From: Methanobrevibacter sp.
GTDB taxonomy: Archaea; Methanobacteriota; Methanobacteria; Methanobacteriales; Methanobacteriaceae
Length of the DNA: 64,000 nt
Direction: 5' to 3'
Assembly (NCBI GenBank): GCA_022775905.1
Contig: JALFJX010000037.1
Span: 83-64,082 of the forward strand
In this document: positions 35,184 to 62,065 of the stretch, piece after piece
Layout: every line of letters begins with the position of its first letter
How positions within the stretch are numbered: the stretch's first letter is position 1
The notes under the pieces: model-generated
The model's input: only the letters and a program-made list of their open reading frames with translations
What the model was told of the DNA's origin: nothing
Database searches by the model: none
Program-made: the position numbers and the translations under genes

Positions 35184-35193
35184 TATTAAATAA

Positions 35194-38252: not shown

Positions 38253-38304
38253 TCACTAAAGTTATTAATTAAATAATGATATACTATATAATAGGTAGAA
38301 TGAT

Positions 38305-39096
38305 ATGATTATAGAATGTACAAATAATAAGATTGAAACAGTGTTTGATTATATTGGTGAAGATTATGGGAAGTGCTTGTACATTTTCATTGATATGAAA
38401 AAATATGGTTTGGATGATGAAAATTTTAATGTATGGATCCAATATGATAATGATGAAATTTGTGCTGTAATCAGCGAGTATTATGGTGGAGTTCAAATTT
38501 ATAGTAAAGATGAAGATTTAATTGTTGAAGAAATTGTTGATTTCATCAAACAAAAAGAAACCAATGTATTATTTGCTGTTAAACCGGTCACTGACAAAAT
38601 AAAAGAGTTATTACCGGATTATGCTCAAAGTACAGGAATTGTTGGTGAATTAAAGGAATTGAATATTGAACCTAACCCTGATGCATACTCTGCTTCATTA
38701 GAAGAACTTGAAGAGATTGTAAGAATCATATCAGAAGATGAAGGTATAGGAAAACCATATGGCTTCGATTCATTATACTCACAATATTACGAAAGAAAAA
38801 CCACTAATTTTGGCCGTAACATTATTTTACGTGATGAAGAAAACAGTGATATCATTTGTCATGCTGGTACATATGCTGAAATTCCAGAATTGGCTGTAGT
38901 TGGTGGTGTAATTACTTCATTACCATATAGGGGAAAAGGATTTTCCAAAGGAACTGTTTCCGCTTTATGTAGTCAATTAATGTCTGAAAATAAACGTATA
39001 TTCTCATATTATTATATTGAATCTGCAACTAGAATGCATATTTCTATAGGATTTGAACAAGTTGCTGAATGGTCCAAATTAACAAAAACTGAATAA
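38305..39096 (+). CDS. putative GNAT-fold acetyltransferase
   Basis: 263 aa. The C-terminal part AVVGGVITSLPYRGKGFSKGTVSALCSQL resembles the GNAT motif A (R/Q-x-x-G-x-G/A). Weak. Confidence 0.45.
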   Translation: MIIECTNNKIETVFDYIGEDYGKCLYIFIDMKKYGLDDENFNVWIQYDNDEICAVISEYYGGVQIYSKDEDLIVEEIVDFIKQKETNVLFAVKPVTDKIKELLPDYAQSTGIVGELKELNIEPNPDAYSASLEELEEIVRIISEDEGIGKPYGFDSLYSQYYERKTTNFGRNIILRDEENSDIICHAGTYAEIPELAVVGGVITSLPYRGKGFSKGTVSALCSQLMSENKRIFSYYYIESATRMHISIGFEQVAEWSKLTKTE

Positions 39097-41244: not shown

Positions 41245-42225
41245 TTGGAAATAAAAAACAGTTATTTGGATTTGATAAAAGTATTTTCAATCATTCTTAT
41301 TTCAGCATATGTTATCTCACAGGCCGGCTATGAATTGAATGCATCCCATAAGCTAACATATGTACTCACAAGATTGTTTTCCAATTTGGGATTTCCATTA
41401 TTATTGATGGTATTTGGTGTCATTGTCCTAAAAACAAAGGAACATTCATTTGCAGTTGTTAAGAAATGCTACAGATATCTCATTCCACCTTTTGTACTTT
41501 TAAATATTGTATTGGGATTACTGATTCTATATTTCGATGGAACCCATTCATTTGCAACTAATATGACTGCATCAAATTGGTTCATATGGATTGTTCTCTC
41601 ATGTGTACTTGTCATTCCAATATTGATTGAATTCTTAAGACTGGAAAAGGAAAATGGAATAAGATATATTCTTGGATTATTTATTTTAACAAGCATATTA
41701 TGGTCATTAAGTGTACAGTTTGATTTTAGCATGTATTATATTGATTTGGTGTTCTTTGCTGAACCATTGATGTTTATGGTTTTAGGATATTATCTGGATA
41801 ATAAGGATTTCAATTTGTCCAAAAAGAAATTAATCATTATTTCATTGGTTATATTTACAGCTGCATTGTCAATTAGGACTTTATTGATTACAAATTCAGT
41901 GAACGAATGGAATAGCTTTTTCATGCTTTTATTTAAGAATACAACTTTACAGATTAGCATTGATCCTTTTACTATTGTTGAAGTTTCAGCATTGTTCATA
42001 TTGTTCAAATCAGCAGATGTGTTTTCAGATTCTTCATTAGTCAATTTCTATTCAAAAATATCTTATTTATTCCTGTTGATTCAACCGATATTTTCAATTA
42101 TAGTGATAAATTTACCATTGGATGTGTCATGGATTCATCTTACTGTAATCGGAACCATTGCAATGTTAATTATTTCAGGCATAATGCTGTATGTTTTTAA
42201 CATTTGTAAATTTGTTTACAAATAG
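41245..42225 (+). CDS. AT3-like polytopic membrane protein lacking the conserved TM1 Arg/His
   Basis: 326 aa with a TTG start 5 nt after GAGGTG. It aligns by eye with the AT3 paralogues, but YLDFIRALAIILVILAHV (54877 copy) corresponds here to YLDLIKVFSIILISAYV (R to K, H to Y). Confidence 0.65.
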   Translation: MEIKNSYLDLIKVFSIILISAYVISQAGYELNASHKLTYVLTRLFSNLGFPLLLMVFGVIVLKTKEHSFAVVKKCYRYLIPPFVLLNIVLGLLILYFDGTHSFATNMTASNWFIWIVLSCVLVIPILIEFLRLEKENGIRYILGLFILTSILWSLSVQFDFSMYYIDLVFFAEPLMFMVLGYYLDNKDFNLSKKKLIIISLVIFTAALSIRTLLITNSVNEWNSFFMLLFKNTTLQISIDPFTIVEVSALFILFKSADVFSDSSLVNFYSKISYLFLLIQPIFSIIVINLPLDVSWIHLTVIGTIAMLIISGIMLYVFNICKFVYK

Positions 42226-42426: not shown

Positions 42427-45099
42427 ATGAAAATAAAACTCCAAAAACTAACTAAAAAGAAATTTTCACTAATAATTGCTTTTCATGACGAACATCAATA
42501 TCTTGAAGATGCTATGTCTTCAGTTATAAATCAAACTTGCGGATTTAAAGATAATATTCAAATTATTTTAGTTGATTGTGCAAGTGATGATGAAACACAT
42601 GAGATTGCAGTTAGATATGAAAGCAAATTTCCTGAAAATATCCTGTTATTGACTCAGGATTCCCCATCAATTTTTGATGGACGTAATCTGGGTCTTGAAT
42701 ATTCAACAGGAGATTACGTTAACTTTTTGGATTTCCATGATTATCTGGATGAAAATGCAATTAAAGAACTGGACAAGGCACTTGGTAAATATAATCATGA
42801 TGTAATTTGTTTACCTGTTGCAACTTTCAAAGAAGATGATGAGAGAAAATTCCCTAGAAAATATGGAAAAACAGGTTTAATTGATCTTAACGAATTCCCC
42901 AACTTTTTTTTAAAATTTATCTACTCATCATTCATTAAAAGAGACATTTTAGAAGATATTCGATTTGATTCACGTATTGTGGATGGTGAAGAGATTGCTT
43001 TTGCAAATAAAGTTCTCATAAAAAGCGAAAGTTATGTTCTTTTAGAAAATGAATCATATTACTATTATAAAAAAAGAAGAATGGTTCACAAGGAACTGAT
43101 GGACAGTAAAGAATACTATTTAACTCAAATGAACTATTTTTTATTGGACTTGATTAAATACTCTCTTGAGCAGCATAATGAAGTAAAAACATTTATCAAG
43201 CGTTTAATAATAAGAAAATTGATATTTTTAATGGATGATACAGAAATCCCCGAATTATTGAGTGAAAACGAGCTTGAACAATTCTTTAATTCATTGCACT
43301 ACATATTATCCTATTTTGATATTGATGAAATAATCGAAATATGCGACAACATAAACCGTTCCTCCTTTTTCATTGCAGTAAAAACAGGTGAAATTGGATT
43401 TAATAATATTTTAACTGGAAAAACTCCTGATTTAAACATTAATACAAATGATAATAATGTTCAGATATTTTCAAATGAACATCTGATTTATGATTTATCC
43501 TCAAAACAGTTAATACTGGACTTTGCAACATTAAGGGATGACGTATTATATTTCTCAGGATACTTTGAAAGCCTAATTGATAATGATGACATCTCCATTA
43601 CCGGAATAAGAGAATTTAAAAATGGGGATACAGAAACAATCGATGCATCATATTATCATTATCCAACAAGAGATTTCAATTCAATGCTTGGCCTTAGATG
43701 GTTAAACTTCTATAATTTTGACTTAGCAATCCCAATTACAAGCAAAAATGAAAAATCAAGCATTAAGATAATCGTAAAATATAAAAATTCTGTTAAATTT
43801 AATCCTAAGCTCAGATTCAGAACTTACTGCAATATAACATACGAAAGCAATTACTATGTAAAAGAAGGCATGATCATAATGTTTGACAACAATGTATTTA
43901 ATGTCATGCCCTATTCATATATCAAAATGTTTGGATTTGAAGTTAAAGGATTAATTGGTATTCTTATTAATAGGGAATTGTTCTATAAGCAGGCATTATT
44001 CTTTAGAGTGATGTATCTGGTATTATATCCTATCATGAAAAATAGAGAAATCTGGATAATAATGGACAGAAAACAGGTAGCAGACGACAATGCAGAACAC
44101 TTCTTTAAATATGCATTAAAACAAAATGACGGTATCAAAAAGTTCTTTTCAATTAATAGGACAAGTGAAGATTATGACAGACTTCAAGAGATATATGGAA
44201 ATGTTTTGGCTTTTGAATCAATAAAACATAGGTTCTATTACACCTTTGCAAGCAAAATTATCTCTTCACAGGGATCTGAATTTTACTTGAATCCGTTTAG
44301 ACACAGAGAATATTATCAAACAGCAGGAATATCCAATATTGATTTTTATTTCCTGCAGCATGGAATCATAAAGGATAACATGTCTTCATGGCTTAGAAAA
44401 TATGACAGAAATCCAAAGCTCATCGTCACATCCACCCAAATGGAATATGAATCACTATTTGATGAAGGATACAACTATGGAGATAAAGTAATACAACTGT
44501 TAGGTCTTCCAAGATATGATAATCTAAACAATAAGGGTCTTAAAAAGCAAATTGTAATAATGCCCTCATGGAGAAATTACCTTACAAATGAAGAAATATT
44601 TAAAGAATCAGAATACTTCAAAAGATTCAATTCATTAATTAACAATGAACGATTGATTAAACATGCAAATGAAAAAGGCTATGAAATATTATTTAAGCCT
44701 CATCCTGAATTATTGCGTTACTTGGATCTGTTTGATAAAAATGACTATGTTCAGATTGATGAACATAAGAAATATCAAGTGATATTCAACGAATCAGCAG
44801 TTTTGGTAACTGACTATTCATCAATATTTTTCGATTTCGCATATCTTAAAAAACCGTTGATCTATTATCAGTATGCAAATGACTACCATTATGATTCTGA
44901 AAACAGTTACTTCCAGTATGAAACAATGGGATTCGGTCCAGTCATCAAAGACGAGGATGAATTGGTTGATAAACTCATAGAATACATGAATAACGATTGC
45001 ATAATGGAAGATAAATATAAGAAACGTGTGGATGAAATCTTTAAGTATAATGATCATAACAATTCAAAAAGATGTTATGATTGGATTTACAATCATTAA
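42427..45099 (+). CDS. GT2-like domain fused to TagF-type CDP-glycerol glycerophosphotransferase domain
   Basis: 890 aa. The N-terminal domain carries FSLIIAFHDE..VINQT..ILVDCASDDE..FLDFHD. The C-terminal domain carries FLQHGIIKDN, GLPRYDNL, MPSWRNY, FKPHPEL and VTDYSSIFFDFAYLKKPLIYYQYANDY, which are TagF/TarF family signatures. Confidence 0.85.
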   Translation: MKIKLQKLTKKKFSLIIAFHDEHQYLEDAMSSVINQTCGFKDNIQIILVDCASDDETHEIAVRYESKFPENILLLTQDSPSIFDGRNLGLEYSTGDYVNFLDFHDYLDENAIKELDKALGKYNHDVICLPVATFKEDDERKFPRKYGKTGLIDLNEFPNFFLKFIYSSFIKRDILEDIRFDSRIVDGEEIAFANKVLIKSESYVLLENESYYYYKKRRMVHKELMDSKEYYLTQMNYFLLDLIKYSLEQHNEVKTFIKRLIIRKLIFLMDDTEIPELLSENELEQFFNSLHYILSYFDIDEIIEICDNINRSSFFIAVKTGEIGFNNILTGKTPDLNINTNDNNVQIFSNEHLIYDLSSKQLILDFATLRDDVLYFSGYFESLIDNDDISITGIREFKNGDTETIDASYYHYPTRDFNSMLGLRWLNFYNFDLAIPITSKNEKSSIKIIVKYKNSVKFNPKLRFRTYCNITYESNYYVKEGMIIMFDNNVFNVMPYSYIKMFGFEVKGLIGILINRELFYKQALFFRVMYLVLYPIMKNREIWIIMDRKQVADDNAEHFFKYALKQNDGIKKFFSINRTSEDYDRLQEIYGNVLAFESIKHRFYYTFASKIISSQGSEFYLNPFRHREYYQTAGISNIDFYFLQHGIIKDNMSSWLRKYDRNPKLIVTSTQMEYESLFDEGYNYGDKVIQLLGLPRYDNLNNKGLKKQIVIMPSWRNYLTNEEIFKESEYFKRFNSLINNERLIKHANEKGYEILFKPHPELLRYLDLFDKNDYVQIDEHKKYQVIFNESAVLVTDYSSIFFDFAYLKKPLIYYQYANDYHYDSENSYFQYETMGFGPVIKDEDELVDKLIEYMNNDCIMEDKYKKRVDEIFKYNDHNNSKRCYDWIYNH

Positions 45100-45118
45100 T
45101 TAATAAAATTTAATATAT

Positions 45119-47386
45119 TTGGGGTTGTTTTTAATTAATAAATATATCTGGCTATTTGGTGAAAACTTTGGTACTACATTAAATAATAATTCATATTATT
45201 TTTGGAAGTATTGTGTAAATATTAAAGATGATATTGAGAAGTATTTCATTTTAAAAAAAACTGAAAATAACTTAAATCATTTAAATAATTTATCAGATTA
45301 TGAAAAACAGTTTATTGTATGGCGTGATTCAAATAAACATCATAAATTATATAATGATGCAGATTTGCTTTTTATAAGTCATTCATATAAAGATGTTACA
45401 CCAGAAGACATAATACAGAGTAATAGGAAGTTTACTTTTGCAAAAGCGTTCATTCATCTCCAACATGGAGTTCATGGATTGAAACAATATTCCGTTAAGG
45501 GTAAATCCTATGGTAATAAAATTATTAAATTTTTTAATTACAACAAAACAATTTCCGATAGTTTAATTGAAAATAATAATTTTAAGGAATATCAACTTGA
45601 ATATATGGAATATATGCCCAAATATGGAGATTTATTAGTAAAAGATACAGAAAATACTGATAAAAATCAAATTTTATGGTTTTTAACATCCCGTGAATAT
45701 TTTAGCAATGAAATTGACACTAAAACTTTTATTAAATATATCAAAGTAGTACTTCAATCAGAAAAGTTAATTGAATTTCTTAAATTAAATAATTTGACTC
45801 TGAAAATCTGTTTTCATAAGTTTTTCAGAAAATCAGTCATTAAAAAAATTTCTAAATTCATTGATAAAGATTTAATGAAAATTTGTTATCAAGAACAATC
45901 AGATTTGAATTTAGAATTATCTAAAAGTAAACTGTTGATTACAGATTATTCATCAATAGCTTATGATTTCATTTTTTTAAATAGACCTGTTTTATTGTTC
46001 CAGCCAGATTATTTGCCATATATTGAAAGAAGAAATCTTACTTTTGATATTAATGAATTAAATGATTATATTATAAAAAATCCTTTTGAATTAATAGAAA
46101 AAATTAGTAATAAAGAATTTAGTGAAATTCCATATTTAAGAAATGCTTTTCCAGATCAAATAGATTATGATTTTGTAATGAATGATGAGCATTTAAAAGA
46201 AATTTATAATAATCTTTCAAGTTTCCAAAAAAATAAGATTACATTCATAGGATATAATTTTTATGGTATTGGAGGTACAGTTAATGCAACAATGGCATTA
46301 GCAGAAGGTTTATTGGAAAAAGGATATCTTGTTGAATTACTTTCTTTAAAAAGGTTAAGAAAATTTAAACAAAATAGACCTAACGGTTTAAATGTCCAAT
46401 TTTTATATTATGATAAAACACCAATTTTTAAGGAGAAATTAACCTATTTTATTAATGGAATAACTCATAATTATGGTTATTTAAAGTATGATTTTAGTAA
46501 AGAATTCTTACATCCATATGTGAATTATCGTTTAAATGAACTGATGAAAAAAATCAAATCAAATACGATAGTTTCAACTAGAGAATCACTTCACTTATAC
46601 ATTAATGACTGCACTTCAAAACATGTGAATAATAAGATTTTCTATTTTCATACTCCTGTTGATATGATTGATGAAGCTTTTCCTAATTTAATGGAGGAAC
46701 TTAAACAAATAAGATTAGATAATGCATTATTTGTTACAGAAATGAACAGACAAGCTATTGAAAATAAATTTAATTATAATAATTATAGATTATATGAGAT
46801 TACTGGAAATTCATTAGTTAATTTAAAAATGATTGATAAAGATGAAATTATTCCAATTGAAAAAAAAGATATATATAATGCAATTTATTTAGTAAGAATA
46901 ACTGAAGATAGAAAAGATGATCTTGATAATCTAATTAACTTTGGAAAATATATTAAAGAAAATAACTTTAATACTTTAATTATTAATGTATATGGTGGTG
47001 GAAATTATGTTCCAATTTTTATTGATTTATTAAACAAATATGGTCTTTTAGATATTATTCAATATAAAGGCGAAACAAACAAAGCCACTGAAAAAATTAT
47101 TGAAAATGATTTCATGATTGATTTTTCTTTAAATCATAGCTTTGGTATGACTTATATTGAAGGTATTTTAAATGGTAAAAAAGTGTTCTGTATGAAAAAT
47201 CCAGGATCACTTGAAGTAATGGAAAATATTCCTAATTCATATATAGAATCATATGAATGGTTATGCTCTCAAATAAAAGATATTGATAAATTATCATTAG
47301 ATGAATTAATCGAAAATTACAATAAAATTCAGAAAAAATTCTCTAGAGACACAGTATCTGAAAAATTTTTAAGATTACTAAAATAA
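45119..47386 (+). CDS. TagF-type glycerophosphotransferase domain fused to GT4/GT-B-like domain
   Basis: 755 aa. The N-terminal domain has LQHGVHGLK and ITDYSSIAYDFIFLNRPVLLFQPD. The C-terminal domain has ITFIGYNFYGIGGTVNAT and SFGMTYIEGILNGKKVF. The track start is a TTG and the exact start is uncertain. Confidence 0.8.
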   Translation: MGLFLINKYIWLFGENFGTTLNNNSYYFWKYCVNIKDDIEKYFILKKTENNLNHLNNLSDYEKQFIVWRDSNKHHKLYNDADLLFISHSYKDVTPEDIIQSNRKFTFAKAFIHLQHGVHGLKQYSVKGKSYGNKIIKFFNYNKTISDSLIENNNFKEYQLEYMEYMPKYGDLLVKDTENTDKNQILWFLTSREYFSNEIDTKTFIKYIKVVLQSEKLIEFLKLNNLTLKICFHKFFRKSVIKKISKFIDKDLMKICYQEQSDLNLELSKSKLLITDYSSIAYDFIFLNRPVLLFQPDYLPYIERRNLTFDINELNDYIIKNPFELIEKISNKEFSEIPYLRNAFPDQIDYDFVMNDEHLKEIYNNLSSFQKNKITFIGYNFYGIGGTVNATMALAEGLLEKGYLVELLSLKRLRKFKQNRPNGLNVQFLYYDKTPIFKEKLTYFINGITHNYGYLKYDFSKEFLHPYVNYRLNELMKKIKSNTIVSTRESLHLYINDCTSKHVNNKIFYFHTPVDMIDEAFPNLMEELKQIRLDNALFVTEMNRQAIENKFNYNNYRLYEITGNSLVNLKMIDKDEIIPIEKKDIYNAIYLVRITEDRKDDLDNLINFGKYIKENNFNTLIINVYGGGNYVPIFIDLLNKYGLLDIIQYKGETNKATEKIIENDFMIDFSLNHSFGMTYIEGILNGKKVFCMKNPGSLEVMENIPNSYIESYEWLCSQIKDIDKLSLDELIENYNKIQKKFSRDTVSEKFLRLLK

Positions 47387-47408
47387 TATCAGCATAGGAG
47401 TTAATTAA

Positions 47409-49622
47409 ATGGTAAATAATTATATATGGCTTTTTGGTGAAAATTTAGGTAAAACCGCTGATAATAATTCTTTTTACTTATGGAAAAAAGTGGTAAACAT
47501 TAATGATGATGTTGAAAAATATATTATTTTTGAGCGAAATAAAAATACGTTAGAAACCTATGTTAATCTCACAGAGTATGAAAAAAAATATGTATTATGG
47601 CGTAATTCCTATAAACATTTTAAAAAATTCTTTGATGCTGATTTATTTATAGTTACATTATCCTATAAAGATGTATTTCCAGATAAAATATTATTTCAAA
47701 AATTAAATTTAAAAAACAAAAAACCAATTTTTTATTTAGGTCATGGCTCTGTAGGTATTAAAACTATAGGGTATAAAGGTGACTCTTATAATAATAATAT
47801 GTTTAGACTGTTTTTGTATAATAATTATGTGCATGATATTTTTGCTAAATATAATAATTTTAGAAAATATCAATTACCTAATTTCTGTTTTCAATCTAGA
47901 TTTGGTGAATTAGTACGTAGAAATCAACAAATTAAAAATAAAAAACAAATTTTATGGTTTATAACCTGGAGAGAATATTTTGGAGATAATGCTGATACTA
48001 GATTATTTATAAGACATATTTCTAATGTTTTAGAATCACATAAGTTAAAAAAATTTTTAATTGATGAAAATGTTACTTTAAAGTTATGTGTTCATCAGTT
48101 TTTTGATAATGAGATTTTTGAAGAAATACATAACACCATAGAAAAAGGCATTATTGAAATTGTTAAATCATCCGAAATTAATGTAATGAATGAATTAGTA
48201 AGTAGTGAACTTTTGATTAGTGATTATTCTTCTGTTGTTTATGATTTTACATTTTTAAATAAACCTGTGTTATTATTTCAACCAGATATTGAAACATATA
48301 TGAAAAAGAGAGATTTTTATTGTAATCTTGAAGAACTTAATGAGATTAATAGTAAAATTTCTTCTGAATTAATTGAAAAAATCATTAATAAAAATTATAA
48401 AATAAATGAATTTTTTAGAAAGACTTATCCTGAAAAAATAGATTATGAGTACATAAAACAGGACAATCATAATATTGATATTTATAATTATATTTATTCT
48501 CTTCAAAAGAATAAAATTACAATCATTGGAACTGATTTCTTTGAAAATTCTTATGAAAATGATGTTATTTTAAGATATGCTGAAAGTTTATTGAAACAAA
48601 ATTATCTTGTTTCATTATTATCTTTAACTAAATCAAAATCAAAGAAAAACATGCCATTTGGTTTAAATATTAATTATTTACATTGGAATAAGTCCCATCC
48701 TTTAAAAAGGAAATTAATAAATTCCATTTTCAAATCTGATAAATACTTCAGTTATCTAAATCATGAACAAGATAAAAATAATCTACATCCATATATGGGG
48801 TATAAATTATCTGAAGTGCTTAAAAATTTAAGATCGAATACTGTAATTTCTACAAGGGAATCATTACATTTATTTTTAAATGATGTTGATTCTGATGAGA
48901 TAAACAATAAAATATACTTATTCCCACATGATTCTAATCAAATTGATAAAATGTTTCCATATATTGCAGAAAAACTTGAAAAACTAGATATCCAAGATAC
49001 AATATTCTTTGATAAATCCACTCAAGATGACATACATGGAAAATTGAAGTATTCTAATTGTAATTCAGAAATATTGAATACATTATTGATTCCTGGAGAC
49101 TATCCTACAATTGAAGAATTAACTGAAACTTTTGAGAACAATGAAAATAAATTAGCAAAATCTGTATTTCAGGGCATTTCATTTGTTATTGACAAAGCAA
49201 GTATAATTAATCTTATGGAATTTGGATGTTATTTGAAAGAAAACAATATCAAAAACATAATGATTGATGCTCATGTAAAATCAGAAGATTTTGAAGAATT
49301 CATGAAATTAATTAATGATAATCAGTTATATGGAATAATTACCTGCAGAGATTGGACCGAAGACTATGTAAAAAGCATTACGAATAAAGATTTTACTTTA
49401 GATATGTCTAATAATAATTCAAATATTTATAATGTTAGTTCAATATTGAATGGAAAAAAGGTATTTTACAATACTAAAAATAATGATTCCATTATAAATA
49501 GTATTCCAGAGTCTTATATTGAATCTCATAGCTGGTTATATGAAAAAATTAACTCTTTAAATGAATTATCATATGATGAATTGATAAATAGCTATTTATT
49601 AATAACAGAACAAGATAAATGA
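47409..49622 (+). CDS. paralogue of 45119 gene: TagF-type domain plus degenerate GT4-like domain
   Basis: 737 aa with the same N-terminus (NNYIWLFGENLG), LGHGSVGIK and ISDYSSVVYDFTFLNKPVLLFQPD. In the GT4-like half the Gly-rich motif reads FFENSYENDV and the FG..E motif reads SNIYNVSSILNGKKVF. Confidence 0.75.
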   Translation: MVNNYIWLFGENLGKTADNNSFYLWKKVVNINDDVEKYIIFERNKNTLETYVNLTEYEKKYVLWRNSYKHFKKFFDADLFIVTLSYKDVFPDKILFQKLNLKNKKPIFYLGHGSVGIKTIGYKGDSYNNNMFRLFLYNNYVHDIFAKYNNFRKYQLPNFCFQSRFGELVRRNQQIKNKKQILWFITWREYFGDNADTRLFIRHISNVLESHKLKKFLIDENVTLKLCVHQFFDNEIFEEIHNTIEKGIIEIVKSSEINVMNELVSSELLISDYSSVVYDFTFLNKPVLLFQPDIETYMKKRDFYCNLEELNEINSKISSELIEKIINKNYKINEFFRKTYPEKIDYEYIKQDNHNIDIYNYIYSLQKNKITIIGTDFFENSYENDVILRYAESLLKQNYLVSLLSLTKSKSKKNMPFGLNINYLHWNKSHPLKRKLINSIFKSDKYFSYLNHEQDKNNLHPYMGYKLSEVLKNLRSNTVISTRESLHLFLNDVDSDEINNKIYLFPHDSNQIDKMFPYIAEKLEKLDIQDTIFFDKSTQDDIHGKLKYSNCNSEILNTLLIPGDYPTIEELTETFENNENKLAKSVFQGISFVIDKASIINLMEFGCYLKENNIKNIMIDAHVKSEDFEEFMKLINDNQLYGIITCRDWTEDYVKSITNKDFTLDMSNNNSNIYNVSSILNGKKVFYNTKNNDSIINSIPESYIESHSWLYEKINSLNELSYDELINSYLLITEQDK

Positions 49623-49729
49623 GTTCTTCATAGCATTAACAAGTTCACATAAATATTTATCTAAATAGATAATTTTTAAATAATGCGAATAATAAATTTA
49701 ACAATTATATAAAGTATTGTGGAATTTTT

Positions 49730-52297
49730 ATGAGCGTTATGAAGAAAACTAATAATTTACAGTATGATTTTACAATTGTATTATATAATATGGAAAATTG
49801 TATTGAACATTCAATTAGGTCAATCATCAGTCAGGAATATGATTTAAGTAAAGTGGAAATACTTTTTATCAATTCAGAAGACAATATTCCTGAAATTGCT
49901 CAAAAATATAGGAAGGAATATCCTGAAAACTTCTTTATTATAGATAATTCTGATAAAACCATTAATTTAGGTTTAAAATATTCTAATGGAAAATATCTTA
50001 ACTTTTTAAATAGTGGAGATGTTTTATCCAATAATACTTTAAGTGAAATAAGTGCTTTTTTTAATAAAATAAATTCATTGGATGTTGCAGCTATTCGTGT
50101 AGAAGAAAGCAAAGGAAAATTTCCAATTGACTATGGATTTACACAGTCAAATAAAGTCATTGATATATCTCAACACCCAGAATTCATTAATTCGATTTCA
50201 GGTTCATTTTTTATAAAAAAAGAAAACATTAATATATCTGATGTAACATATATCGAGGAACTATTACTAGATTCCAAGTTGGGATTTGCAATTGATCCAA
50301 AAGTTGAGAAATTAAGCTTAAACTATATGGATAATGAAACAAGCTTTGAAAAATTCATTAATTATTATGAAAATATATCTAAGTTCTGCAGTGAAAAAGT
50401 AGGTTATATTCCAAATTATATTCAATATAAGCTTGCAATTGAACTTGCAGATATTGTTGAAATCGAAGATATTGATGATGTATTAACCAATGGTTTAACT
50501 TCCAGTGACATATATGATTATCTAAATAATGTATTTAATCATATTAATGCGAGCAATATCAAAGGAAATGTTTTCATTAACAATCATACTCAGAATTTCA
50601 TGTTATATTTAAAAAATAATGATTTTCACATTACTATTGAAGAGGATAATGAGGTCGTAGTATATTCAAAAAACCATGCATTGAATGTTTTAAACAGACA
50701 GGATATCTGGATGGACATCATTGAAGTCAAAGATGACTTTATTAATTTCTCAGGAAGCATTACCAGCTACTGTGAATATGATTTCATAGCCATTGAAGCT
50801 TTAAAGGAAATGAATAATAAAACTGAAGTATTTTCATGTGAATTTGTAGATTATAGTTCTACAGAGCGTAAAGTTAAAACATTCCTGTCAATTCCTTGGG
50901 TATATATGTATAATTTTGATGTACAGATTCCAATTTCAGACTGTCAGAACTGCAAGATATCCTTCAGATTCACTTATTCTGATGATGAAACTGAGATTAC
51001 AGTAAATCCGAATATTAAATTCAGAAGATTTGCCAGTTTATCTGCATTTAGCCATTATTTCATTAAAGATTCAAGAATTGTATTGTTTACAATGAACTCA
51101 TTTTTAATAATGCCATATTCCTTTAAAAAGGTTTTAAGATTTGAACTGAGCTCAATTAAAAAGATACTTCAAAGCAATGCAACAAATAAGATTAAAACAC
51201 TTGGCTATAAAGGAATATATTTGACTCTGTTGCCATATATGAAAAACAAGAAAATATGGCTTATGGGAGACAGGGTCGAAGCCGGCGATGACAATGCTGA
51301 ACATCTATTCAAATACTGTATTAATCAAGATGATGATGTCAACAAATATTTTATCATAGGTAAGGACTCACCAGATTATAATAGATTAAAAAAGGAATGC
51401 AAAAACATTGTTGCTTTTAGATCTGCAAAACATAAGATACTCTTTACATTTTCAGAAAAGCTAGTATCCTCACAGGTAAACAAGTTCATTTTAAATCCTT
51501 TTTTAGCTAGTAACGAGTTCTTGTATAATGGTGCAGTGCTGCACGATGAGTGTTTCATCCAGCATGGTGTAATTTTACATGACTTATCAAATTGGATTAG
51601 AAAGTACGTTTATAATCTGTCATTATTCGTTACTAGTGCTGAAGCGGAATGGGAATCAATTGCACATACAAATTATAACTTTGAAACTGATAGAATACAG
51701 CTGCTAGGTCTTCCAAGATATGATAAGCTGGTCAACAATGACAATAAACAGATACTGTTCATTCCAACATGGAGACGTAATTTAGATGACCCTCGTCTGT
51801 TAGTTGATTCAGAGTATTTTAAGAATATCAATAATGTTTTAAATAATGAAAGATTGATTGAACTTGCCCATGAATATGGATATTCATTGGTTTTCAGACC
51901 ACATCCCGAATTATGGAGATATCTTGATTTATTTGATATTCCTGATGAATTTAGAATATCTGAGGAATCCTATACAAAATTATTCAGTGAATCATCAATT
52001 ATGATTACAGACTACTCATCAATTGCATTCGATTTTGCATATCTTCAAAAACCTTTAATATACTATCAGACCCAGGACTTTGAGGAATTCCATTATGAAA
52101 AGGGATACTTTGATTATGAAACAATGGGATTCGGTGAGATTATTAAAACGGAAAATGATTTGATTGATAAAATTGAATTTTATTTGAAGCATAATTGTGA
52201 ACTTGAAGATGAATATAAACAGAGATCATCAAAGTTTTTCAAGTTCCATGATACAGACAATTCTAAAAGGATATATGAGTGGTTAATTAATCATTAG
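49730..52297 (+). CDS. GT2-like domain fused to TagF-type glycerophosphotransferase domain
   Basis: 855 aa. The C-terminal domain has FIQHGVILHD, GLPRYDKL, IPTWRRN, FRPHPEL and ITDYSSIAFDFAYLQKPLIYYQTQD. The N-terminal GT2-like fold has diverged acidic motifs (INSEDN, FLNSGD). Confidence 0.85.
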   Translation: MSVMKKTNNLQYDFTIVLYNMENCIEHSIRSIISQEYDLSKVEILFINSEDNIPEIAQKYRKEYPENFFIIDNSDKTINLGLKYSNGKYLNFLNSGDVLSNNTLSEISAFFNKINSLDVAAIRVEESKGKFPIDYGFTQSNKVIDISQHPEFINSISGSFFIKKENINISDVTYIEELLLDSKLGFAIDPKVEKLSLNYMDNETSFEKFINYYENISKFCSEKVGYIPNYIQYKLAIELADIVEIEDIDDVLTNGLTSSDIYDYLNNVFNHINASNIKGNVFINNHTQNFMLYLKNNDFHITIEEDNEVVVYSKNHALNVLNRQDIWMDIIEVKDDFINFSGSITSYCEYDFIAIEALKEMNNKTEVFSCEFVDYSSTERKVKTFLSIPWVYMYNFDVQIPISDCQNCKISFRFTYSDDETEITVNPNIKFRRFASLSAFSHYFIKDSRIVLFTMNSFLIMPYSFKKVLRFELSSIKKILQSNATNKIKTLGYKGIYLTLLPYMKNKKIWLMGDRVEAGDDNAEHLFKYCINQDDDVNKYFIIGKDSPDYNRLKKECKNIVAFRSAKHKILFTFSEKLVSSQVNKFILNPFLASNEFLYNGAVLHDECFIQHGVILHDLSNWIRKYVYNLSLFVTSAEAEWESIAHTNYNFETDRIQLLGLPRYDKLVNNDNKQILFIPTWRRNLDDPRLLVDSEYFKNINNVLNNERLIELAHEYGYSLVFRPHPELWRYLDLFDIPDEFRISEESYTKLFSESSIMITDYSSIAFDFAYLQKPLIYYQTQDFEEFHYEKGYFDYETMGFGEIIKTENDLIDKIEFYLKHNCELEDEYKQRSSKFFKFHDTDNSKRIYEWLINH

Positions 52298-52314
52298 AAG
52301 GGAGGTTAATATAT

Positions 52315-54876
52315 ATGGCTAATTTCAAGTTTACAATCATTATTCCAAACAATTCAGGATATAAAGTGTCTATTGATTCAGTAATATCCCAACAGCTTGA
52401 CTTTATTGAAAATACTCAAGTGATTGTTGTTAAAGAGAATGATGAAATTGCTTTAGATATTGATGAATATATATCCCAATATCCTGATAACATTCTAGTT
52501 TTAGATAATGGATCCAGAAATTCAGCACTAAGACATGCAAATGGAGACTTTATCAGCTTTATGAAAGCAGGTGACTCATTTGATGTCAAATGCTTAAAAC
52601 TTGTCAGTGAAATGTTCGATACAAATAAGGACATTAATTTAATTTCCGTTCCATTGTTTGATAATATTTATAAAAATCCATTATATGACTTGCCAGCATC
52701 AGACAATAGAATAATTAATGTTAATGATGAAGATGTGAACTATTATTTTCATTTACCTATCTGTTCTTCGTTTATTCGCAAAAACAACTATGAATTTGAA
52801 GACAAAGATATTGATGAAAATGGAATAAGCGTAACTTCCAGGATATTAATTGATGATGGGAAATTTGGATTTATCAAAGACATATTCTGCTATCACAATC
52901 CAGAAAATAGCAATAACATGAACTATTGCAGCGTTATGGGAAAATTAAATCTATTGAATAGCTTAATAAAATATTCAAAAGACAATCCGGAATTCCTGCA
53001 GCATATTATTGTAAAAGAATTGGAATCAATTGTTCGAATCGAGGATTTAGATTTCATTACTGTTGATTCAAATCAATTGGATGGATTTTGGAATTTGCTG
53101 TGTGAAATCTTGGATAATATTTCTAAAAAAGCCATTGAATACAATAATTTCATTGACAGTTTTGTAGCCTCATTTTTATTATTCATTAAAAATCAGTCAT
53201 TCAATATCGATTGCAGACAACATAAGGTATTTTTCAAGACAAATAACTACAATATGTTTAATTTACATAGTCATGGATTGTATTTTGATGTAGTAGAAAT
53301 AAGAAAAGGTGTACTGAATTTATCAGGTTTTCTAAAGAGCATTTGCTACAGTGAAAATATTACTGTTGAAGCATGCGTTGAAGACAAAAACGGAGATATT
53401 GCATATTATGAAGGAAAATTTGTTGAATATCCGACAACTGATCGCAGAACCGTCAAGTTTTTATCAATTCCATGGATATTCTCATACAATTTTGACTTTA
53501 AAATTCATTTAAATGGAAAAGAAATAGAAAAAATTTCATTCAGGACAATATATCATGAAAACGCAGAGTATGTAATATGGAAAAATAGAATTTCTGCCCG
53601 GAAATATTCTCATTTATCCAAATTTTCACATTATCTCATAAAAGATGATATTTTGATACTGCTTAAAGATAATTCGTTTTATTCAATGCCATTAAATTCA
53701 AAAAGCAAATATAAATTTGACTTAAGGGCAATTCTGCAATTGATTAAGGAAAAACCACAATACTACAGAGGAGGATTGTTTTATAGGACATTGATAATGC
53801 TGTTATATCCATTCTTGAAAAATAAAAAAATCTGGATGTTTATGGACAGACGTGATTTTGCAGATGACAATGGTGAACACTTATTTAAATATGCTTTAAG
53901 TCAAAAAGATGATGTTGATAAGTATTATGTATTGGATAAGGATACATCTGACTTTAAAAGATTGTCTAAAAGCTTTAAAAATGTTATTCCTTTTGGATCA
54001 TTTAAACATAGGTTATTGTTCTTATTTACTGAAAAAATGATTACATCACAGCCTGCCGTATCATTGTATAATCCTTTCTTCAATAAGAACATCACATTGT
54101 TTGCAGGTTTTTATCCTGATGTATATTTCCTGCAGCATGGGGTTACAAAAGATAACATTTCATCTTGGCTGCATAAGTTCAACAGGAATTTAGCGTTGAT
54201 TTCAACTACATCTGATTTGGAAAAGGAATCATTTTTAGATGTCGGATATAACTATGATGAGGAAATTATTCAAACATTAGGATTTACACGTTATGATAAT
54301 TTAAATAATGAAAATACTAAAAAGCAGATTGTTTTGATGCCGTCCTGGAGAAATTACATTAAAAATGAAGATGATTTGATAAATTCAGAATATTTCAAAA
54401 GATGGAATTCCCTGATAAACAATGAAGAGTTTATAGAATATGCTAAGCAAAAAGGTTATGAAATCATCTTTAAACCTCATTTGAACTTATACAAGTACAT
54501 TGATCTGTTTGATGCAAATGAATATGTTACTGTTGACCATGTTAAGAAGTATCAGGAAATATTTAATGAATCAGCATTGCTGATTACAGATTATTCATCC
54601 ATTTTCTTTGATTTTGCATATATCAAAAAACCTTTAATATTCTACCAATATGCAAATGACTACCATTTTGACTCAGAAAATGGCTATTTTGATTATGAAT
54701 CCATGGGATTTGGTGAAGTAATCAGGGATGAAGATAAAATGGTTAGTAAAATTAAGTATTATCTGGATAACAAATGTGTTATGGAAGATGAATACAAAAA
54801 AAGAGTTGATTATTTCTTCAAACACACAGATAAAAACAACTGTAAAAGAACATATGATTGGATTTATAAAAATTAA
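52315..54876 (+). CDS. GT2-like domain fused to TagF-type glycerophosphotransferase domain
   Basis: 853 aa. The C-terminal domain is very similar to the 42427 gene (ITDYSSIFFDFAYIKKPLIFYQYANDYHFDSENGYFDYESMGFG). The N-terminal GT2-like fold has diverged motifs (VVKENDE, FMKAGD). Confidence 0.85.
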   Translation: MANFKFTIIIPNNSGYKVSIDSVISQQLDFIENTQVIVVKENDEIALDIDEYISQYPDNILVLDNGSRNSALRHANGDFISFMKAGDSFDVKCLKLVSEMFDTNKDINLISVPLFDNIYKNPLYDLPASDNRIINVNDEDVNYYFHLPICSSFIRKNNYEFEDKDIDENGISVTSRILIDDGKFGFIKDIFCYHNPENSNNMNYCSVMGKLNLLNSLIKYSKDNPEFLQHIIVKELESIVRIEDLDFITVDSNQLDGFWNLLCEILDNISKKAIEYNNFIDSFVASFLLFIKNQSFNIDCRQHKVFFKTNNYNMFNLHSHGLYFDVVEIRKGVLNLSGFLKSICYSENITVEACVEDKNGDIAYYEGKFVEYPTTDRRTVKFLSIPWIFSYNFDFKIHLNGKEIEKISFRTIYHENAEYVIWKNRISARKYSHLSKFSHYLIKDDILILLKDNSFYSMPLNSKSKYKFDLRAILQLIKEKPQYYRGGLFYRTLIMLLYPFLKNKKIWMFMDRRDFADDNGEHLFKYALSQKDDVDKYYVLDKDTSDFKRLSKSFKNVIPFGSFKHRLLFLFTEKMITSQPAVSLYNPFFNKNITLFAGFYPDVYFLQHGVTKDNISSWLHKFNRNLALISTTSDLEKESFLDVGYNYDEEIIQTLGFTRYDNLNNENTKKQIVLMPSWRNYIKNEDDLINSEYFKRWNSLINNEEFIEYAKQKGYEIIFKPHLNLYKYIDLFDANEYVTVDHVKKYQEIFNESALLITDYSSIFFDFAYIKKPLIFYQYANDYHFDSENGYFDYESMGFGEVIRDEDKMVSKIKYYLDNKCVMEDEYKKRVDYFFKHTDKNNCKRTYDWIYKN

Positions 54877-55956
54877 GTGATATGGATGTATAAAATAGTT
54901 AATGGTAAAAAAAGAATATTTTATTTAGATTTTATAAGGGCATTAGCAATTATTTTGGTAATTTTAGCTCATGTAACTCGTGCTTTCTTTCAAAATGCTA
55001 ATCCTGGTGGTTTTAATATTCATTTCGTTGCACCATTTATTGATTTTGGTGTGCTTGGTGTTCCATTATTTTTAATGATAAGTGGAGCATTACTATTGAA
55101 TAGAGATTATGAGCTTGGAGATTTCTTAAAGCGCAGATATTCTAGAGTTTTAATCCCATTTCTATTTTGGGCAATGATATTTCCAATAACTAAAATGCTA
55201 TTTGCAGGAGAACCGGCAACAGCAGTTAATTTTATAAAATTATACTTTGATAATAATTACTGGTTTGTTTGGATGATTTTAGGTGTTTATTTATTTATCC
55301 CAATTATAAATTCATTCATTAAAGAATATGGTATGAAAGGTGTTGAGTATTTCTTATTAATCTGGGGAACAGTAATGTTTTTAAATAATATTGGCCAGTA
55401 CCCATTCCATCAACTTGAATTAAGTTATTTTGCAGGTTATTTAGGTTATTTTGTATTAGGTTACTATTTAACAAACAAAAAATTCAATTTGACTGATTCA
55501 AGATTACTAAAGATATCATTACTCATATTTTTAATATTCACCTTCATCAACATGGATTATACATTAACAATGTGTTTTTTAAAAAATAAGTTACTTTATT
55601 ATAAATATGAAACTATTGTTACTGTAATGCAGTCAGCAGGATTATTCATGTTCATAAGATACTTTGCTTTAGTCAGTTCCAATAATCCAAAATCAATTAA
55701 AAATAAGATTTATTTGATATTTAAGGAATCATTTATGTTTAAAGTAATCTTTTCAATAAGTACTTTTAGTTATGGTATTTATTTAGCACATTACAATCCA
55801 TTATTCTTCCTCAAATATGAATACACCATATTATTCACTCATAATCCAATTATCTGGTTACCAATAGTAATGATCATGATTATTGGAAGTACATGGATAG
55901 TATTGTGGATATTTGATAAGATACCTATTTTAAGAAAAATAACTGGTTCACATTAA
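54877..55956 (+). CDS. acyltransferase family 3 (AT3) O-acyltransferase, apparently intact
   Basis: 359 aa with about 10 TM helices. It carries YLDFIRALAIILVILAHV (conserved R/H), GVPLFLMISGALLLNR and a SYGIYLAH C-terminal motif. GTG start abuts the previous stop; ATG 54886 is an alternative. Confidence 0.85.
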   Translation: MIWMYKIVNGKKRIFYLDFIRALAIILVILAHVTRAFFQNANPGGFNIHFVAPFIDFGVLGVPLFLMISGALLLNRDYELGDFLKRRYSRVLIPFLFWAMIFPITKMLFAGEPATAVNFIKLYFDNNYWFVWMILGVYLFIPIINSFIKEYGMKGVEYFLLIWGTVMFLNNIGQYPFHQLELSYFAGYLGYFVLGYYLTNKKFNLTDSRLLKISLLIFLIFTFINMDYTLTMCFLKNKLLYYKYETIVTVMQSAGLFMFIRYFALVSSNNPKSIKNKIYLIFKESFMFKVIFSISTFSYGIYLAHYNPLFFLKYEYTILFTHNPIIWLPIVMIMIIGSTWIVLWIFDKIPILRKITGSH

Positions 55957-58462: not shown

Positions 58463-60004
58463 TTGTCAAAAATGGAAAATAATGATGTAGATTGTCTTGT
58501 TATTTCTTACTATTTCCCTCCACGTTTAGAAACTAGTGGTCTTGTAGTTGCAAGAAAGATAATGGAAAAGAATCTTCATGTTGATGTAATTCAAAGCTCA
58601 TATGATAAATCTTCTGATTTTAATGAAATAATTGACAAATATGTTAATGAGAGATTTCCAATTGACATTAAATCCAAACCCGATTATATACCATTTATTT
58701 TTGAATATATTAATTTGGGATTAAAATCTATTAAAAAGAACTATAACAAAATTTATAGCAGATCATATATCTATTCAAACCATTTTTTGGCTTTGGAATA
58801 TAAGTTCAATAATCCTGATGTTGAATGGACTGCAGAATTCTCAGATCCATTGCTTTTAAATCTATATGACGGGAAAATCAAAAATTATCCAAGAGTTATC
58901 CTTGACAACCCAGATTATATCAAAAAACTCAATGAGAAAATAGCCAACTTCAACAAATCCAATAATACTCATTTTAAGGATTTGGATAATCCAAGTAACA
59001 CATTCTTCATTGCAGAATATCTGACATTCATATTTGCAGATAAGATAATATTTACAAATGAAAATCAAAGAGAAGTAATGCTTTCAGTTTATGATGATGA
59101 AATAAGGCAAATTGTGGAAAACAAATCCATTTTTGAGGTTCATCCAACAATTGACAGTGAATTTTATGACTACAAAGACTGCGGACTGGAATTGGATGAC
59201 AATTATATCAATATTGCATACTTTGGTACTTACTACTACATCAGACACTTTGAACCATTATTCTATGCATTTGAAGCATTGAATCACAAATATAAAGATA
59301 AGATTAAATTTTATTTCTTTACAGAACGTGACGAATTATTGAAGATATCAACAGAGAACCTGAAGATTTCAGACAATCTGATTATTGAAAAACCATTAAA
59401 TTACTTTGAATTCTTAAATGCAACCACAAAATTTGATATTTTACTTATTAATGACACAATTACTAAAGGCAATTTCAAAGTAAATCCATTCCTTCCATCC
59501 AAATATTCCGATTATATTGGTTCTGGATCAGACATTTGGGGAATTTGTGAAGATGACAGTATATTATCTAAAAAGGAATTCAAATATAAATCTTCCATGA
59601 CGGACTATAAAAGTTCCTGTGATGTTTTGATTAGTATCTTAAATGACAATGGATATGAAGACTCTGATTGTTTCTTTGAAGATAACATATATGAAAAAAG
59701 AATAAACGAGCTCAACTGGAGATTCGGACTTGAGTTTGATGAGAGAAGAAAATATTATAATCAATCCATTAAACTAAAGGAGAATAATACTAAATTACGC
59801 AGCGAAAAACAAATCTTATTTGACAAAAAAGAGAAGCTCAAATCCAAAAATGATATTTTAAGACAAAAGAATGAGAATCTTAAAAATAAAAATGAGCAGC
59901 TTAAAAAAGAAAATAAGCTACTTAAAGCTAAATATGATGAAATTATTAATTCAAACAGTTGGAAGATTACAGAACCATTGAGAAAATTTAAAAAGAACAA
60001 ATAG
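58463..60004 (+). CDS. putative glycopolymer-biosynthesis protein with C-terminal coiled coil and S-x-S-W-K-x-T-x-P-L-R motif
   Basis: 513 aa with a TTG start. The N-terminal about 400 aa are a globular alpha/beta domain (CLVISYYFPPRLETSGLVVARK..). Residues about 430-495 are K/N/L heptad-rich, followed by NSNSWKITEPLRKF, a motif I recall at the C-termini of O-antigen/rhamnan-type glycosyltransferase-associated proteins. Confidence 0.5.
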   Translation: MSKMENNDVDCLVISYYFPPRLETSGLVVARKIMEKNLHVDVIQSSYDKSSDFNEIIDKYVNERFPIDIKSKPDYIPFIFEYINLGLKSIKKNYNKIYSRSYIYSNHFLALEYKFNNPDVEWTAEFSDPLLLNLYDGKIKNYPRVILDNPDYIKKLNEKIANFNKSNNTHFKDLDNPSNTFFIAEYLTFIFADKIIFTNENQREVMLSVYDDEIRQIVENKSIFEVHPTIDSEFYDYKDCGLELDDNYINIAYFGTYYYIRHFEPLFYAFEALNHKYKDKIKFYFFTERDELLKISTENLKISDNLIIEKPLNYFEFLNATTKFDILLINDTITKGNFKVNPFLPSKYSDYIGSGSDIWGICEDDSILSKKEFKYKSSMTDYKSSCDVLISILNDNGYEDSDCFFEDNIYEKRINELNWRFGLEFDERRKYYNQSIKLKENNTKLRSEKQILFDKKEKLKSKNDILRQKNENLKNKNEQLKKENKLLKAKYDEIINSNSWKITEPLRKFKKNK

Positions 60005-60015
60005 AAGGTTATTGC

Positions 60016-60996: not shown

Positions 60997-61081
60997 CCAT
61001 TCTTATTAAAAAGATTACAAAACATTTTAATTAAAGTAAAAATATATTACTAATATATAAACTTTTTTAATAGGTGTATTG

Positions 61082-62053: not shown

Positions 62054-62065
62054 AAAGATGATTTT

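Follow-up and report, generated by a model that had tools for sequence, protein, structure and literature searches.

A tandem array of TagF-family fusion genes in an uncultured pig-gut Methanobrevibacter and its likely role in a teichoic-acid-like surface polymer

Sequence analysis of a 64,000-nucleotide stretch of Methanobrevibacter sp. DNA (the window; assembly GCA_022775905.1, contig JALFJX010000037.1, positions 83 to 64,082) revealed five consecutive plus-strand genes, here named P1 to P5, each coding for a protein in which a domain related to the teichoic acid enzyme TagF is joined to a second, glycosyltransferase-like (GT) domain. P1 (42427-45099, 890 amino acids, aa) carries a TarS-like GT-A domain at residues ~12-252, a helical and beta-sandwich middle part and a TagF-like domain at 535-888. 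P4 (49730-52297, 855 aa) has a GT-A-like domain, a helical linker, a beta-sandwich at 300-462 and a TagF-like domain at 502-852, and P5 (52315-54876, 853 aa) a GT-A-like domain followed by a TagF-like domain at 499-851. The order is reversed in P2 (45119-47386, 755 aa), with a TagF-like domain at ~1-355 and a GT4-type GT-B domain at ~372-755, and in P3 (47409-49622, 737 aa), where the TagF-like domain precedes a degenerate C-terminal GT-B-like domain. The genes are separated by 19, 22, 107 and 17 nt. The start codon of P2 is TTG; public gene calls begin 6 nt downstream, giving 753 aa. BLASTP comparison placed the proteins in two paralogue families: family A (P1, P4 and P5), 35-39% identical over the full length, and family B (P2 and P3), 39% identical over the full length.

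The listing of open reading frames (ORFs) bears out the number, strand, lengths, coordinates and 17-107 nt gaps given in the initial annotation of this DNA, and its division into three GT2-like/TagF and two TagF/GT4-like proteins agrees with the Pfam matches, the structure models of P2 and P4 and the identity between P2 and P3. Its description of the genes as giant is not appropriate for proteins of 737-890 aa. The extent of 12.4 kb is exact for the five genes; it misses a sixth TagF gene at 62892 and genes for precursor synthesis at 61079-62833, both described below.

The Pfam profile PF04464 (Glyphos_transf) matched P1 to P5 over profile positions ~10-366 with E values of 6e-50, 3e-16, 8e-21, 1e-47 and 4e-42, in all cases above its gathering score of 22 bits. 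An N-terminal GT2 domain (PF00535) was detected in P1 (2e-21), P4 (1.5e-10) and P5 (7e-4, below the gathering score), and a weak C-terminal GT1/GT4 match was obtained for P2 only (1e-3). When a profile of the TagF domains of all six genes was compared with the PDB, TarL (8VA1, 2e-21), TagF (3L7I, 2e-20) and Cps3D (8QOY, 4e-16) were found. The TagF signature previously reported for all five proteins was recovered as PF04464 and the motifs QHG (GHG in P3), (I/V)(T/S)DYSS and KP(L/V); its GLPRYD-type element, (L/F)(P/T)RYD, is restricted to P1, P4 and P5. No transmembrane segment was predicted in any of P1-P5, as for TagF. Pfam gave no TPR match in the five proteins, and the models of P2 and P4 contain no TPR array in their secondary structure.

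The catalytic histidines of Staphylococcus epidermidis TagF have been identified as H444 and H584, in the motifs TWHGTP and LRMHY, from the mutant structures 3L7J and 3L7M (H444N, H584A) and PMC5974469. An L-INS-i alignment against 3L7I located their equivalents in every protein: H645/H759 in P1, H116/H233 in P2, H112/H229 in P3, H612/H725 in P4, H608/H722 in P5 and H130/H260 in P6, the product of the sixth gene. The PRxD, P(S/T)WR and TDYSS motifs are also conserved, with variation of PRxD and P(S/T)WR in P2, P3 and P6. All six phosphotransferase sites are therefore probably active, as judged from these residues.

Searches of the PDB with the single sequences of P2 and of its C-terminal half yielded nothing, and the fold emerged only with an AlphaFold model and Foldseek. 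The model of P2, built with 45 homologues (pLDDT 90.5, pTM 0.88), had as its best PDB match the capsule polymerase Cps3D of Actinobacillus pleuropneumoniae serotype 3 (8QOY, E 9e-25, 815 aligned columns), followed in order by the Hib multi-enzyme Bcs3, the GT4 enzymes TarM and BshA, and then TarL and TagF. The P2 and P4 models match TagF 3L7I and TarL 8VA1 with E values between 1e-9 and 4e-17; P1, P3 and P5, each 35-39% identical to a modelled paralogue, are predicted to share the GT-B-like two-Rossmann fold of TagF and TarL.

The GT-B domain of P2 retains the G-rich loop, R593/R598 and E681, and the protein departs from the family at 19 of 195 conserved family-B columns, always by conservative changes. 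P3 departs at 64 of the 195 columns, 50 of them in the GT-B half, where the G-rich loop, both Arg residues and the conserved Glu are lost; this domain looks catalytically dead. The opposite loss was observed elsewhere in the family. In 9 of the 45 family-B homologues, including the closest methanogen relative of P2 (L018:10001-12265), the first catalytic His is replaced (QHG to QPG, QNG, QTG or QSG), with the second His and the GT4 domain kept. These homologues may be glycosyltransferase-only derivatives, a mirror image of P3.

For family A, a model of P4 (pLDDT 82.9) matched TarL and TagF with its C-terminal part. The first ~460 residues, consisting of the GT-A domain, the helical linker and the beta-sandwich, matched the full-length wall teichoic acid (WTA) glycosyltransferases RmlT, TarS and TarP, and the N-terminus of P1 matched TarS at 3e-14 in a sequence search. 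Replacement of R75, D91, D93 or D94 by alanine abolishes TarS activity, and D93 binds Mn2+ (PMC5156392). The residues at these four positions are R, D, H, D in P1, a DXH variant; I, N, G, D in P4; and R, K, G, D in P5. Most homologues keep the canonical VDDGS ... FLDSDD motifs. In the DXH-type GT-A domain of P1 metal binding would still be possible and the domain may be active, while those of P4 and P5 look inactive. A working glycosyltransferase domain is thus predicted only for P2, and perhaps for P1. Five bifunctional fusions would overstate the chemistry of the array, since catalytic residues are missing from the GT domains of P3, P4 and P5.

The sixth TagF-family gene, P6, begins at 62892 on the plus strand and runs past the end of the window at 64000. 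Its complete product, seen on another contig (L014:10825-12507), is a single-domain protein of 560 aa of the classical TWHGTPLK type. It is preceded by two plus-strand genes that may provide its substrate. The first (61079-62053) codes for GpsA, a bacterial-type NAD(P)H-dependent sn-glycerol-3-phosphate dehydrogenase (NF000942, 262 bits, above the cut-off). The second (62066-62833) codes for a LicC/IPCT-like nucleotidyltransferase of 255 aa, whose solved relatives are headed by the phosphocholine cytidylyltransferase LicC (1JYK, E 4e-13), followed by inositol-phosphate cytidylyltransferases. We infer that the latter is a CTP:glycerol-3-phosphate cytidylyltransferase making CDP-glycerol, so that GpsA, the cytidylyltransferase-like gene and TagF are most simply read as a supply line for CDP-sn-glycerol-3-phosphate. 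The GpsA-nucleotidyltransferase pair also adjoins TagF genes in the Methanobrevibacter metagenome-assembled genome (MAG) SIG16 and in Methanobrevibacter ruminantium M1. With this pair beside P6, the TagF-family enzymes of the locus may use a CDP-polyol donor and form phosphodiester bonds.

No tRNA, Rfam family or methanogenesis marker gene was found in the window, so the assignment of the taxon rests on relatives. In a scan of one genome per GTDB species, the only full-length relatives of P1 came from three Methanobrevibacter MAGs (67, 60 and 47% identity); the next-best matches were proteins of gut Clostridiales, Christensenella and Prevotellaceae, which aligned in the TagF domain only (32-34% identity). 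Tblastn with all window proteins showed that gene order is shared with the three MAG loci, with flank genes 50-90% identical in amino acid sequence, and that flanking genes not counted as part of the TagF island (CDF transporter, peroxidase, Usp, amino-acid ABC importer) are 62-91% identical in Methanobrevibacter MAGs. The 90% cluster holding P2 is named by NCBI 'CDP-glycerol glycerophosphotransferase family protein [uncultured Methanobrevibacter sp.]', its 99% cluster likewise bears the name of an uncultured Methanobrevibacter, and a 146-kb contig reaching left of the window carries an FprA-like gene, genes of the DUF2115, DUF530 and DUF1699 families and a Glycos_transf_4 gene. The sequence of the window was recovered at 94-100% k-mer identity, mainly from pig-gut metagenomes.

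The host can safely be taken, from these relatives, as an uncultured pig-gut Methanobrevibacter, a pseudomurein-type methanogen, as the initial annotation had supposed from the context. A bacterial origin of the contig was rejected in view of the full-length Methanobrevibacter relatives with syntenic flanks, the NCBI cluster name, and the archaeal DUF genes and FprA-like gene on the left. The two findings that the initial annotation had named as fatal to its proposal, a Gram-positive source and the absence of the TagF catalytic residues, were not obtained: the contig is not Gram-positive and the catalytic His residues are present in all proteins.

A rough neighbour-joining tree of 24 TagF domains separated three lineages. 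P6 clustered with S. epidermidis TagF and a Firmicute protein; family A formed a methanogen-only clade, sister to single-domain proteins of gut Clostridiales; and family B was interleaved with a Firmicute protein. Recent tandem duplication was considered as the origin of the array and rejected, because identity among the paralogues is low and they have separate orthologues in other genomes. The five genes are, by these comparisons, old paralogues of two separate lineages.

The family-B pair differs from the rest of the array in base composition. The G+C content of P2-P3 is 22.5%, against 28.6-29.3% in P1, P4 and P5 and 29.8% in the window, which suggests that these two genes were acquired separately, as one cassette. 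P2 shares 52% identity with a protein encoded on contig L018 of a methanogen, where FTR and Hjc are also found, and 49% with one encoded on contig L020 (GCA_947591045.1) of a spore-forming Firmicute, where Coat_F and a SleB-like gene occur. In both clusters the family-B protein stands in tandem with a second TagF-family gene, as P2 does with P3. Both clusters differ from the window in having a TagG/TagH-like ABC-2 exporter beside these genes, and that of the Firmicute also includes a TagD-type cytidylyltransferase.

The number of TagF-domain genes at the syntenic position varies between species: one in RGIG2247, two in RUG648, two genes with three domains in SIG16 and six here. Seven public contigs with the array are 99.7-100% identical at the nucleotide level, and all five ORFs are intact in six of them. 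In the metagenome contig L002 a nonsense allele, G50180T (GAA to TAA, codon 151), splits P4 into products of 150 and 672 aa; the same base was found in the metatranscriptome run X26. Phase variation through a repeat tract was considered for P4 and rejected, since this single G-to-T substitution accounts for the split. Possibly the cell can do without P4, or the TagF domain can act apart from the GT-A domain, which looks dead.

Contig ERZ27233567 (L016:1-6295) is 99.4% identical to the window rightward from 58361. On the left side it lacks P5, an acyltransferase (AT3) gene and the ABC importer; their place is taken by genes for another TagF fusion, which shares 41-44% identity with P1, P4 and P5, for a beta-helix protein of 985 aa and for a CLIPPER-domain protein. 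This could be due either to cassette replacement between strains or to a chimeric assembly. The earlier suggestion that the number of fused paralogues reflects variable surface chemistry thus agrees with the variation between species and, tentatively through ERZ27233567, with variation between strains.

The region from ~32.3 kb to beyond 64 kb is best explained as a variable surface-glycopolymer island, largely assembled from genes exchanged with gut Firmicutes. Its genes given here with coordinates are all on the plus strand. Three code for AT3 (Acyl_transf_3) membrane acyltransferases. One of them (54877-55956, E 8.5e-32, 8 transmembrane-like segments) directly abuts P5 and probably O-acylates the polymer. 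The other two lie upstream of P1: 40249-41043, conserved in loci L007 and L008, and 41245-42225, a protein of 326 aa with a TTG start and 10 transmembrane-like segments, 57% identical in L007 and also present in L008. Public gene calls do not include 41245-42225 and call two minus-strand ORFs (87 and 84 aa) instead, which is probably an annotation error. Downstream of P5 lies an amino-acid ABC importer (SBP_bac_3/BPD_transp_1), the only ABC transporter in the island; it is 80-90% conserved across species and probably unrelated to the polymer.

To the right, the module of GT2, GpsA, nucleotidyltransferase and P6 is headed by a gene (58463-60004) for a soluble protein of 513 aa that is conserved in the syntenic locus L007. 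The GT2 gene that follows it, ending at 60996, codes for a stand-alone glycosyltransferase of 326 aa conserved in L007, L008 and L009. An imperfect 21-nt tandem repeat (~4 copies, 68-78% matches) at 59825-59926 falls in the coiled-coil-like C-terminal part of the 513-aa protein.

The left part of the island (32337-39096) codes for a secreted Ig and GDSL/SGNH protein of 948 aa, a LicD-family phosphotransferase of 552 aa and two soluble proteins of 400 and 263 aa. It appears to be species-specific, as tblastn found no homologue at the syntenic position in L007 and L009. Pfam and NCBIfam assigned no family to the 400-, 263- and 513-aa proteins, and hhalign rejected the possibility that those of 513 and 400 aa are hidden TagF relatives (probability <1%).

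This kind of locus has been in print since 2010, and the one analysed here is an expanded example. In the tables of Leahy 2010 for M. ruminantium M1 (PMC2812497, Tables S1/S2), the category 'Teichoic acid biosynthesis' holds two GT2/TagF fusions in tandem (mru2181 and mru2182), the GT2 mru2183, the nucleotidyl transferase mru2190, the TagF gene mru2191 and mru1078/1079. The NAD-dependent glycerol-3-phosphate dehydrogenase mru2188 was listed there under lipid metabolism, and for mru2181, mru2182 and mru2191 a Firmicute origin by transfer was considered probable. The same authors noted, with reference to Kandler & König 1978, that the phosphate content of the M. ruminantium wall is comparable to that of teichoic-acid-containing bacterial walls, and suggested that the wall holds glycopolymers yet to be identified. 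Transcription of the M1 homologue mru_1079 has been observed, with induction by lauric acid. In the literature searched, no demonstrated teichoic-acid-like polymer was found for any archaeon, in line with the remark in the initial annotation that homologues had been noted in Methanobrevibacter without any polymer being shown.

M1 belongs to the same genus, and, as far as it is known from the published listing, its mru2183/2188/2190/2191 module and its family A genes match 58463-64000 and family A in the window. The M1 locus has two tandem fusions versus five here and no TagF/GT4 (family B) genes listed; the status of the catalytic residues and the parallel with capsule polymerases were not discussed in Leahy 2010. 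The present analysis adds the correspondence with two capsule-polymerase architectures, the family-B pair, the signs of degeneration in three accessory domains, the sixth gene with its donor module and the variation in copy number between species.

The fusions share the bipartite architecture of the capsule polymerases described by Litschko 2018, GT-A/TagF in P1, P4 and P5 and TagF/GT-B in P2 and P3. In such polymerases the TagF-like domain contributes glycerol-3-phosphate or hexose-1-phosphate units and its glycosyltransferase partner a hexose, the resulting chains being poly(glycosyl-glycerol-phosphate) or poly(oligosaccharide-phosphate) (PMC11666461). P2 follows the order of Cps3D/Cps7D of Actinobacillus pleuropneumoniae (8QOY; PMC5974469, PMC11666461), a TagF-like glycerol-3-phosphate transferase and then a GT4 retaining glycosyltransferase, and keeps both the TagF His residues and the Arg/Arg(Lys)/Glu of the GT-B domain. 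Unlike Cps3D, with which it shares only ~15% sequence identity, P2 has no N-terminal helical bundle and no TPR, and the GT-B domain of P3 looks dead. The setting is also different. The host is a Methanobrevibacter, an archaeon without outer membrane; no group-2 capsule export genes are found in the window, and the context is not that of an ABC-transporter-dependent (group 2) Gram-negative capsule locus.

P1, P4 and P5 resemble CslB, Cps1B, Cps12B and Ccs2 (PMC5974469) in having an N-terminal GT-A domain followed by the TagF-like domain, and a Campylobacter jejuni protein of PF00535 + PF04464 architecture was among the sequence matches of P1. They differ from this group in having a TarS/RmlT-type GT-A part and a beta-sandwich middle domain, in lacking TPR, and in the DXD motif, which is changed to DXH in P1 and lost in P4 and P5. 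The TagF-like domain of CslB, Cps1B, Cps12B and Ccs2 transfers hexose-1-phosphate, which does not by itself set the donor of P1, P4 and P5.

To the enzymes of Gram-positive bacteria, TagF (3L7I), TarL (8VA1), TarS/TarP/RmlT and TarM, the proteins of the locus are similar in fold, catalytic His and lack of transmembrane segments, and the TWHGTPLK motif of P6 is identical. Unlike in Gram-positive bacteria, where decorating-type and polymerase-type domains are separate proteins, they are fused here, and the wall is of pseudomurein, not murein.

On this evidence the locus probably makes one or more teichoic-acid-like surface polymers of the poly(glycosyl-glycerol-phosphate) or sugar-phosphate kind. 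A glycosyl-polyol-phosphate or sugar-phosphate backbone is proposed from the domain layouts and the closest structural matches, which correspond to bipartite capsule polymerases (Cps3D) and to TarS/RmlT joined to TagF. The initial annotation had proposed TagF/TarL-type polymerases of a poorly characterised archaeal anionic polymer; the TagF family, the taxon and the anionic polymer stand, and in view of the Cps3D and TarS/RmlT-type matches the enzymes are not simple homopolymerases.

What we infer about the donors, the products, polymerase versus single-addition activity and anchoring can be put together as follows. GpsA would form sn-glycerol-3-phosphate and the LicC-like nucleotidyltransferase would convert it to CDP-glycerol. 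At the cytoplasmic face of the membrane, P6 and the soluble, membrane-peripheral P1-P5 would use their His/His sites to transfer glycerol-phosphate to a lipid-linked acceptor; family A proteins may transfer a sugar-1-phosphate instead. The GT-B domain of P2, probably also the DXH-type GT-A domain of P1 and perhaps the stand-alone GT2 would insert hexoses between the phosphodiester links. The product would be one or more poly(glycosyl-glycerol-phosphate) or poly(sugar-phosphate) chains, like those of Cps3D/Cps7D and Cps1B. The degenerate GT domains of P3, P4 and P5 would most likely serve as acceptor-binding or scaffolding modules. Export would depend on a transporter encoded outside the window. 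After export the three AT3 acyltransferases, and possibly the SGNH protein, would O-acylate the polymer, and LicD would perhaps add a phospho-substituent.

Several observations weigh against this proposal. The TPR domain, present in most bipartite TagF-like capsule polymerases and needed for processivity in Cps3D/Cps7D, is absent from P1-P5. Three of the five accessory GT domains look dead, so that an alternating-polymerase model is directly applicable to P2 alone, and perhaps to P1. Among solved structures, the nucleotidyltransferase comes closest to a phosphocholine cytidylyltransferase, and a LicD gene is also present in the island. No TagGH/KpsMT-type exporter, TagO/TagA, LCP-type ligase or TagD was found in the window, where ~40 of the 57 ORFs of at least 120 aa were scanned; TarIJ was likewise not found in these ORFs. 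Transcription of P1 in gut metatranscriptomes, like the expression of mru_1079 in M1, speaks for the proposal: contigs of four assemblies cover nearly all of the gene at a word depth of 5-8. Coverage of P2-P5 was patchy and low, and the neighbouring ABC importer genes reached a depth of 40-70; contig depth is a poor measure of expression, and carry-over of DNA is possible.

A different outcome would be a classical WTA, that is, plain poly(glycerol-phosphate) or poly(ribitol-phosphate) made by TagB/TagF- or TarF/TarK/TarL-like domains, decorated by the TarS/TarM-like parts and linked to pseudomurein. The best matches of the N-terminal parts of P1 and P4 are indeed the decorators TarS, RmlT and TarP, the C-terminal half of P2 matches TarM, and P6, a protein of the classical type, falls beside S. 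epidermidis TagF in the tree. It is normal for Bacillus and Staphylococcus to have more than one TagF paralogue in a pathway, and the phosphate-rich wall of M. ruminantium would also be accounted for. Over its whole chain, however, P2 best matches the alternating polymerase Cps3D and not TagF plus a separate decorator; the would-be decorating domains of P3, P4 and P5 are without catalytic residues, and the TagO/TagA, TagGH and LCP genes expected of the pathway were not found in the window. The N-acetyltalosaminuronic acid of pseudomurein has no free C6-OH, so that the bacterial attachment chemistry could not be copied directly. We regard a classical WTA as unlikely.

The six TagF proteins might also make no long polymer. 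They would then be non-processive, adding single glycerol- or sugar-phosphate groups to a capsular heteropolysaccharide or to the N- or O-glycans of the many adhesin-like surface proteins, and the array would stand for variable decoration, not for a teichoic acid. Within the TagF family, TagB, TarF and the capsule 'transition transferases' CpsA/CpsC attach one or a few units, and the missing processivity domain of Cps3D/Cps7D would be explained, but neither TagF nor TarL needs TPR to polymerise. Modifying enzymes are plentiful in the island (three AT3, LicD and the SGNH protein) and TagF copy number differs widely from species to species, a pattern typical of decoration genes; against this, a dedicated CDP-glycerol supply by GpsA and the nucleotidyltransferase suggests bulk demand, and the high wall phosphate of M. 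ruminantium fits a polymer better. Single additions by all six proteins therefore seem rather improbable.

Decaying cargo of horizontal transfer, with several genes as non-functional remnants kept transiently, could explain the degenerate GT domains of P3, P4 and P5, the P4 nonsense allele circulating in the population, the aberrant G+C content of P2-P3, the lost first His of some family-B homologues and the low RNA coverage of P2-P5, but is very hard to reconcile with five ORFs intact over 737-890 codons in nearly all public contigs, with six preserved TagF active sites, with the age of P1, P4 and P5, each still open, and with P1 orthologues in other species.

A more far-reaching version of the proposed polymer is conceivable, though doubtful: a genuine archaeal wall teichoic acid of poly(glycosyl-sn-glycerol-3-phosphate), its glycerol phosphate having the bacterial stereochemistry and being supplied by the acquired GpsA, and attached to pseudomurein by a non-LCP ligase. 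The dead GT domains of P3, P4 and P5 would be acceptor-recognition modules, and the polymerase cassette, swapped between strains, would set serotype and recognition by viruses and host. The lipids of the cell itself use sn-glycerol-1-phosphate. The locus is a clear instance of a cell-envelope pathway passed between domains, and its host would be an archaeon needing both enantiomers of glycerol-phosphate.

Methanobrevibacter are the dominant producers of methane in the gut of animals and humans, and their surface is the target of anti-methanogen vaccines, archaeal viruses and host immunity. The phosphate-rich wall of M. ruminantium was reported in 1978 and the teichoic-acid gene homologues in 2010, and no archaeal teichoic-acid-like polymer is known to have been isolated. 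Among the four species compared, the window holds the largest candidate enzyme set at this position, six TagF domains plus the donor-supply genes. The capsule polymerases that run parallel to these enzymes are biochemically tractable, which opens the question to direct tests in vitro. The gain is incremental, since the idea has precedents and members of the gene family are annotated as a matter of routine.

A Glycos_transf_4 gene for a polyprenyl-phosphate sugar-1-phosphate transferase (MraY/TagO/AglH-type) was found ~6-7 kb left of the window (L022:16979-17992). It is a candidate for the initiating enzyme, of pseudomurein or of the proposed polymer.

At the left end of the window, a complete pstS-pstC-pstA-pstB-phoU phosphate-uptake operon occupies 870-5001 on the minus strand, and a second PhoU, with an N-terminal helix-turn-helix, is encoded at 7588-8475 on the plus strand. 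In Bacillus, teichoic acid synthesis is under phosphate control.

Unrelated to the locus, a SpoVK/CbbX/EccA-like AAA ATPase with an N-terminal zinc ribbon is encoded at 22855-24303 (plus strand) and overlaps the gene of a zinc-ribbon membrane protein at 24287-25369 (plus strand). An XPD/DinG-type helicase gene (20890-22785) lies upstream of the ATPase gene.

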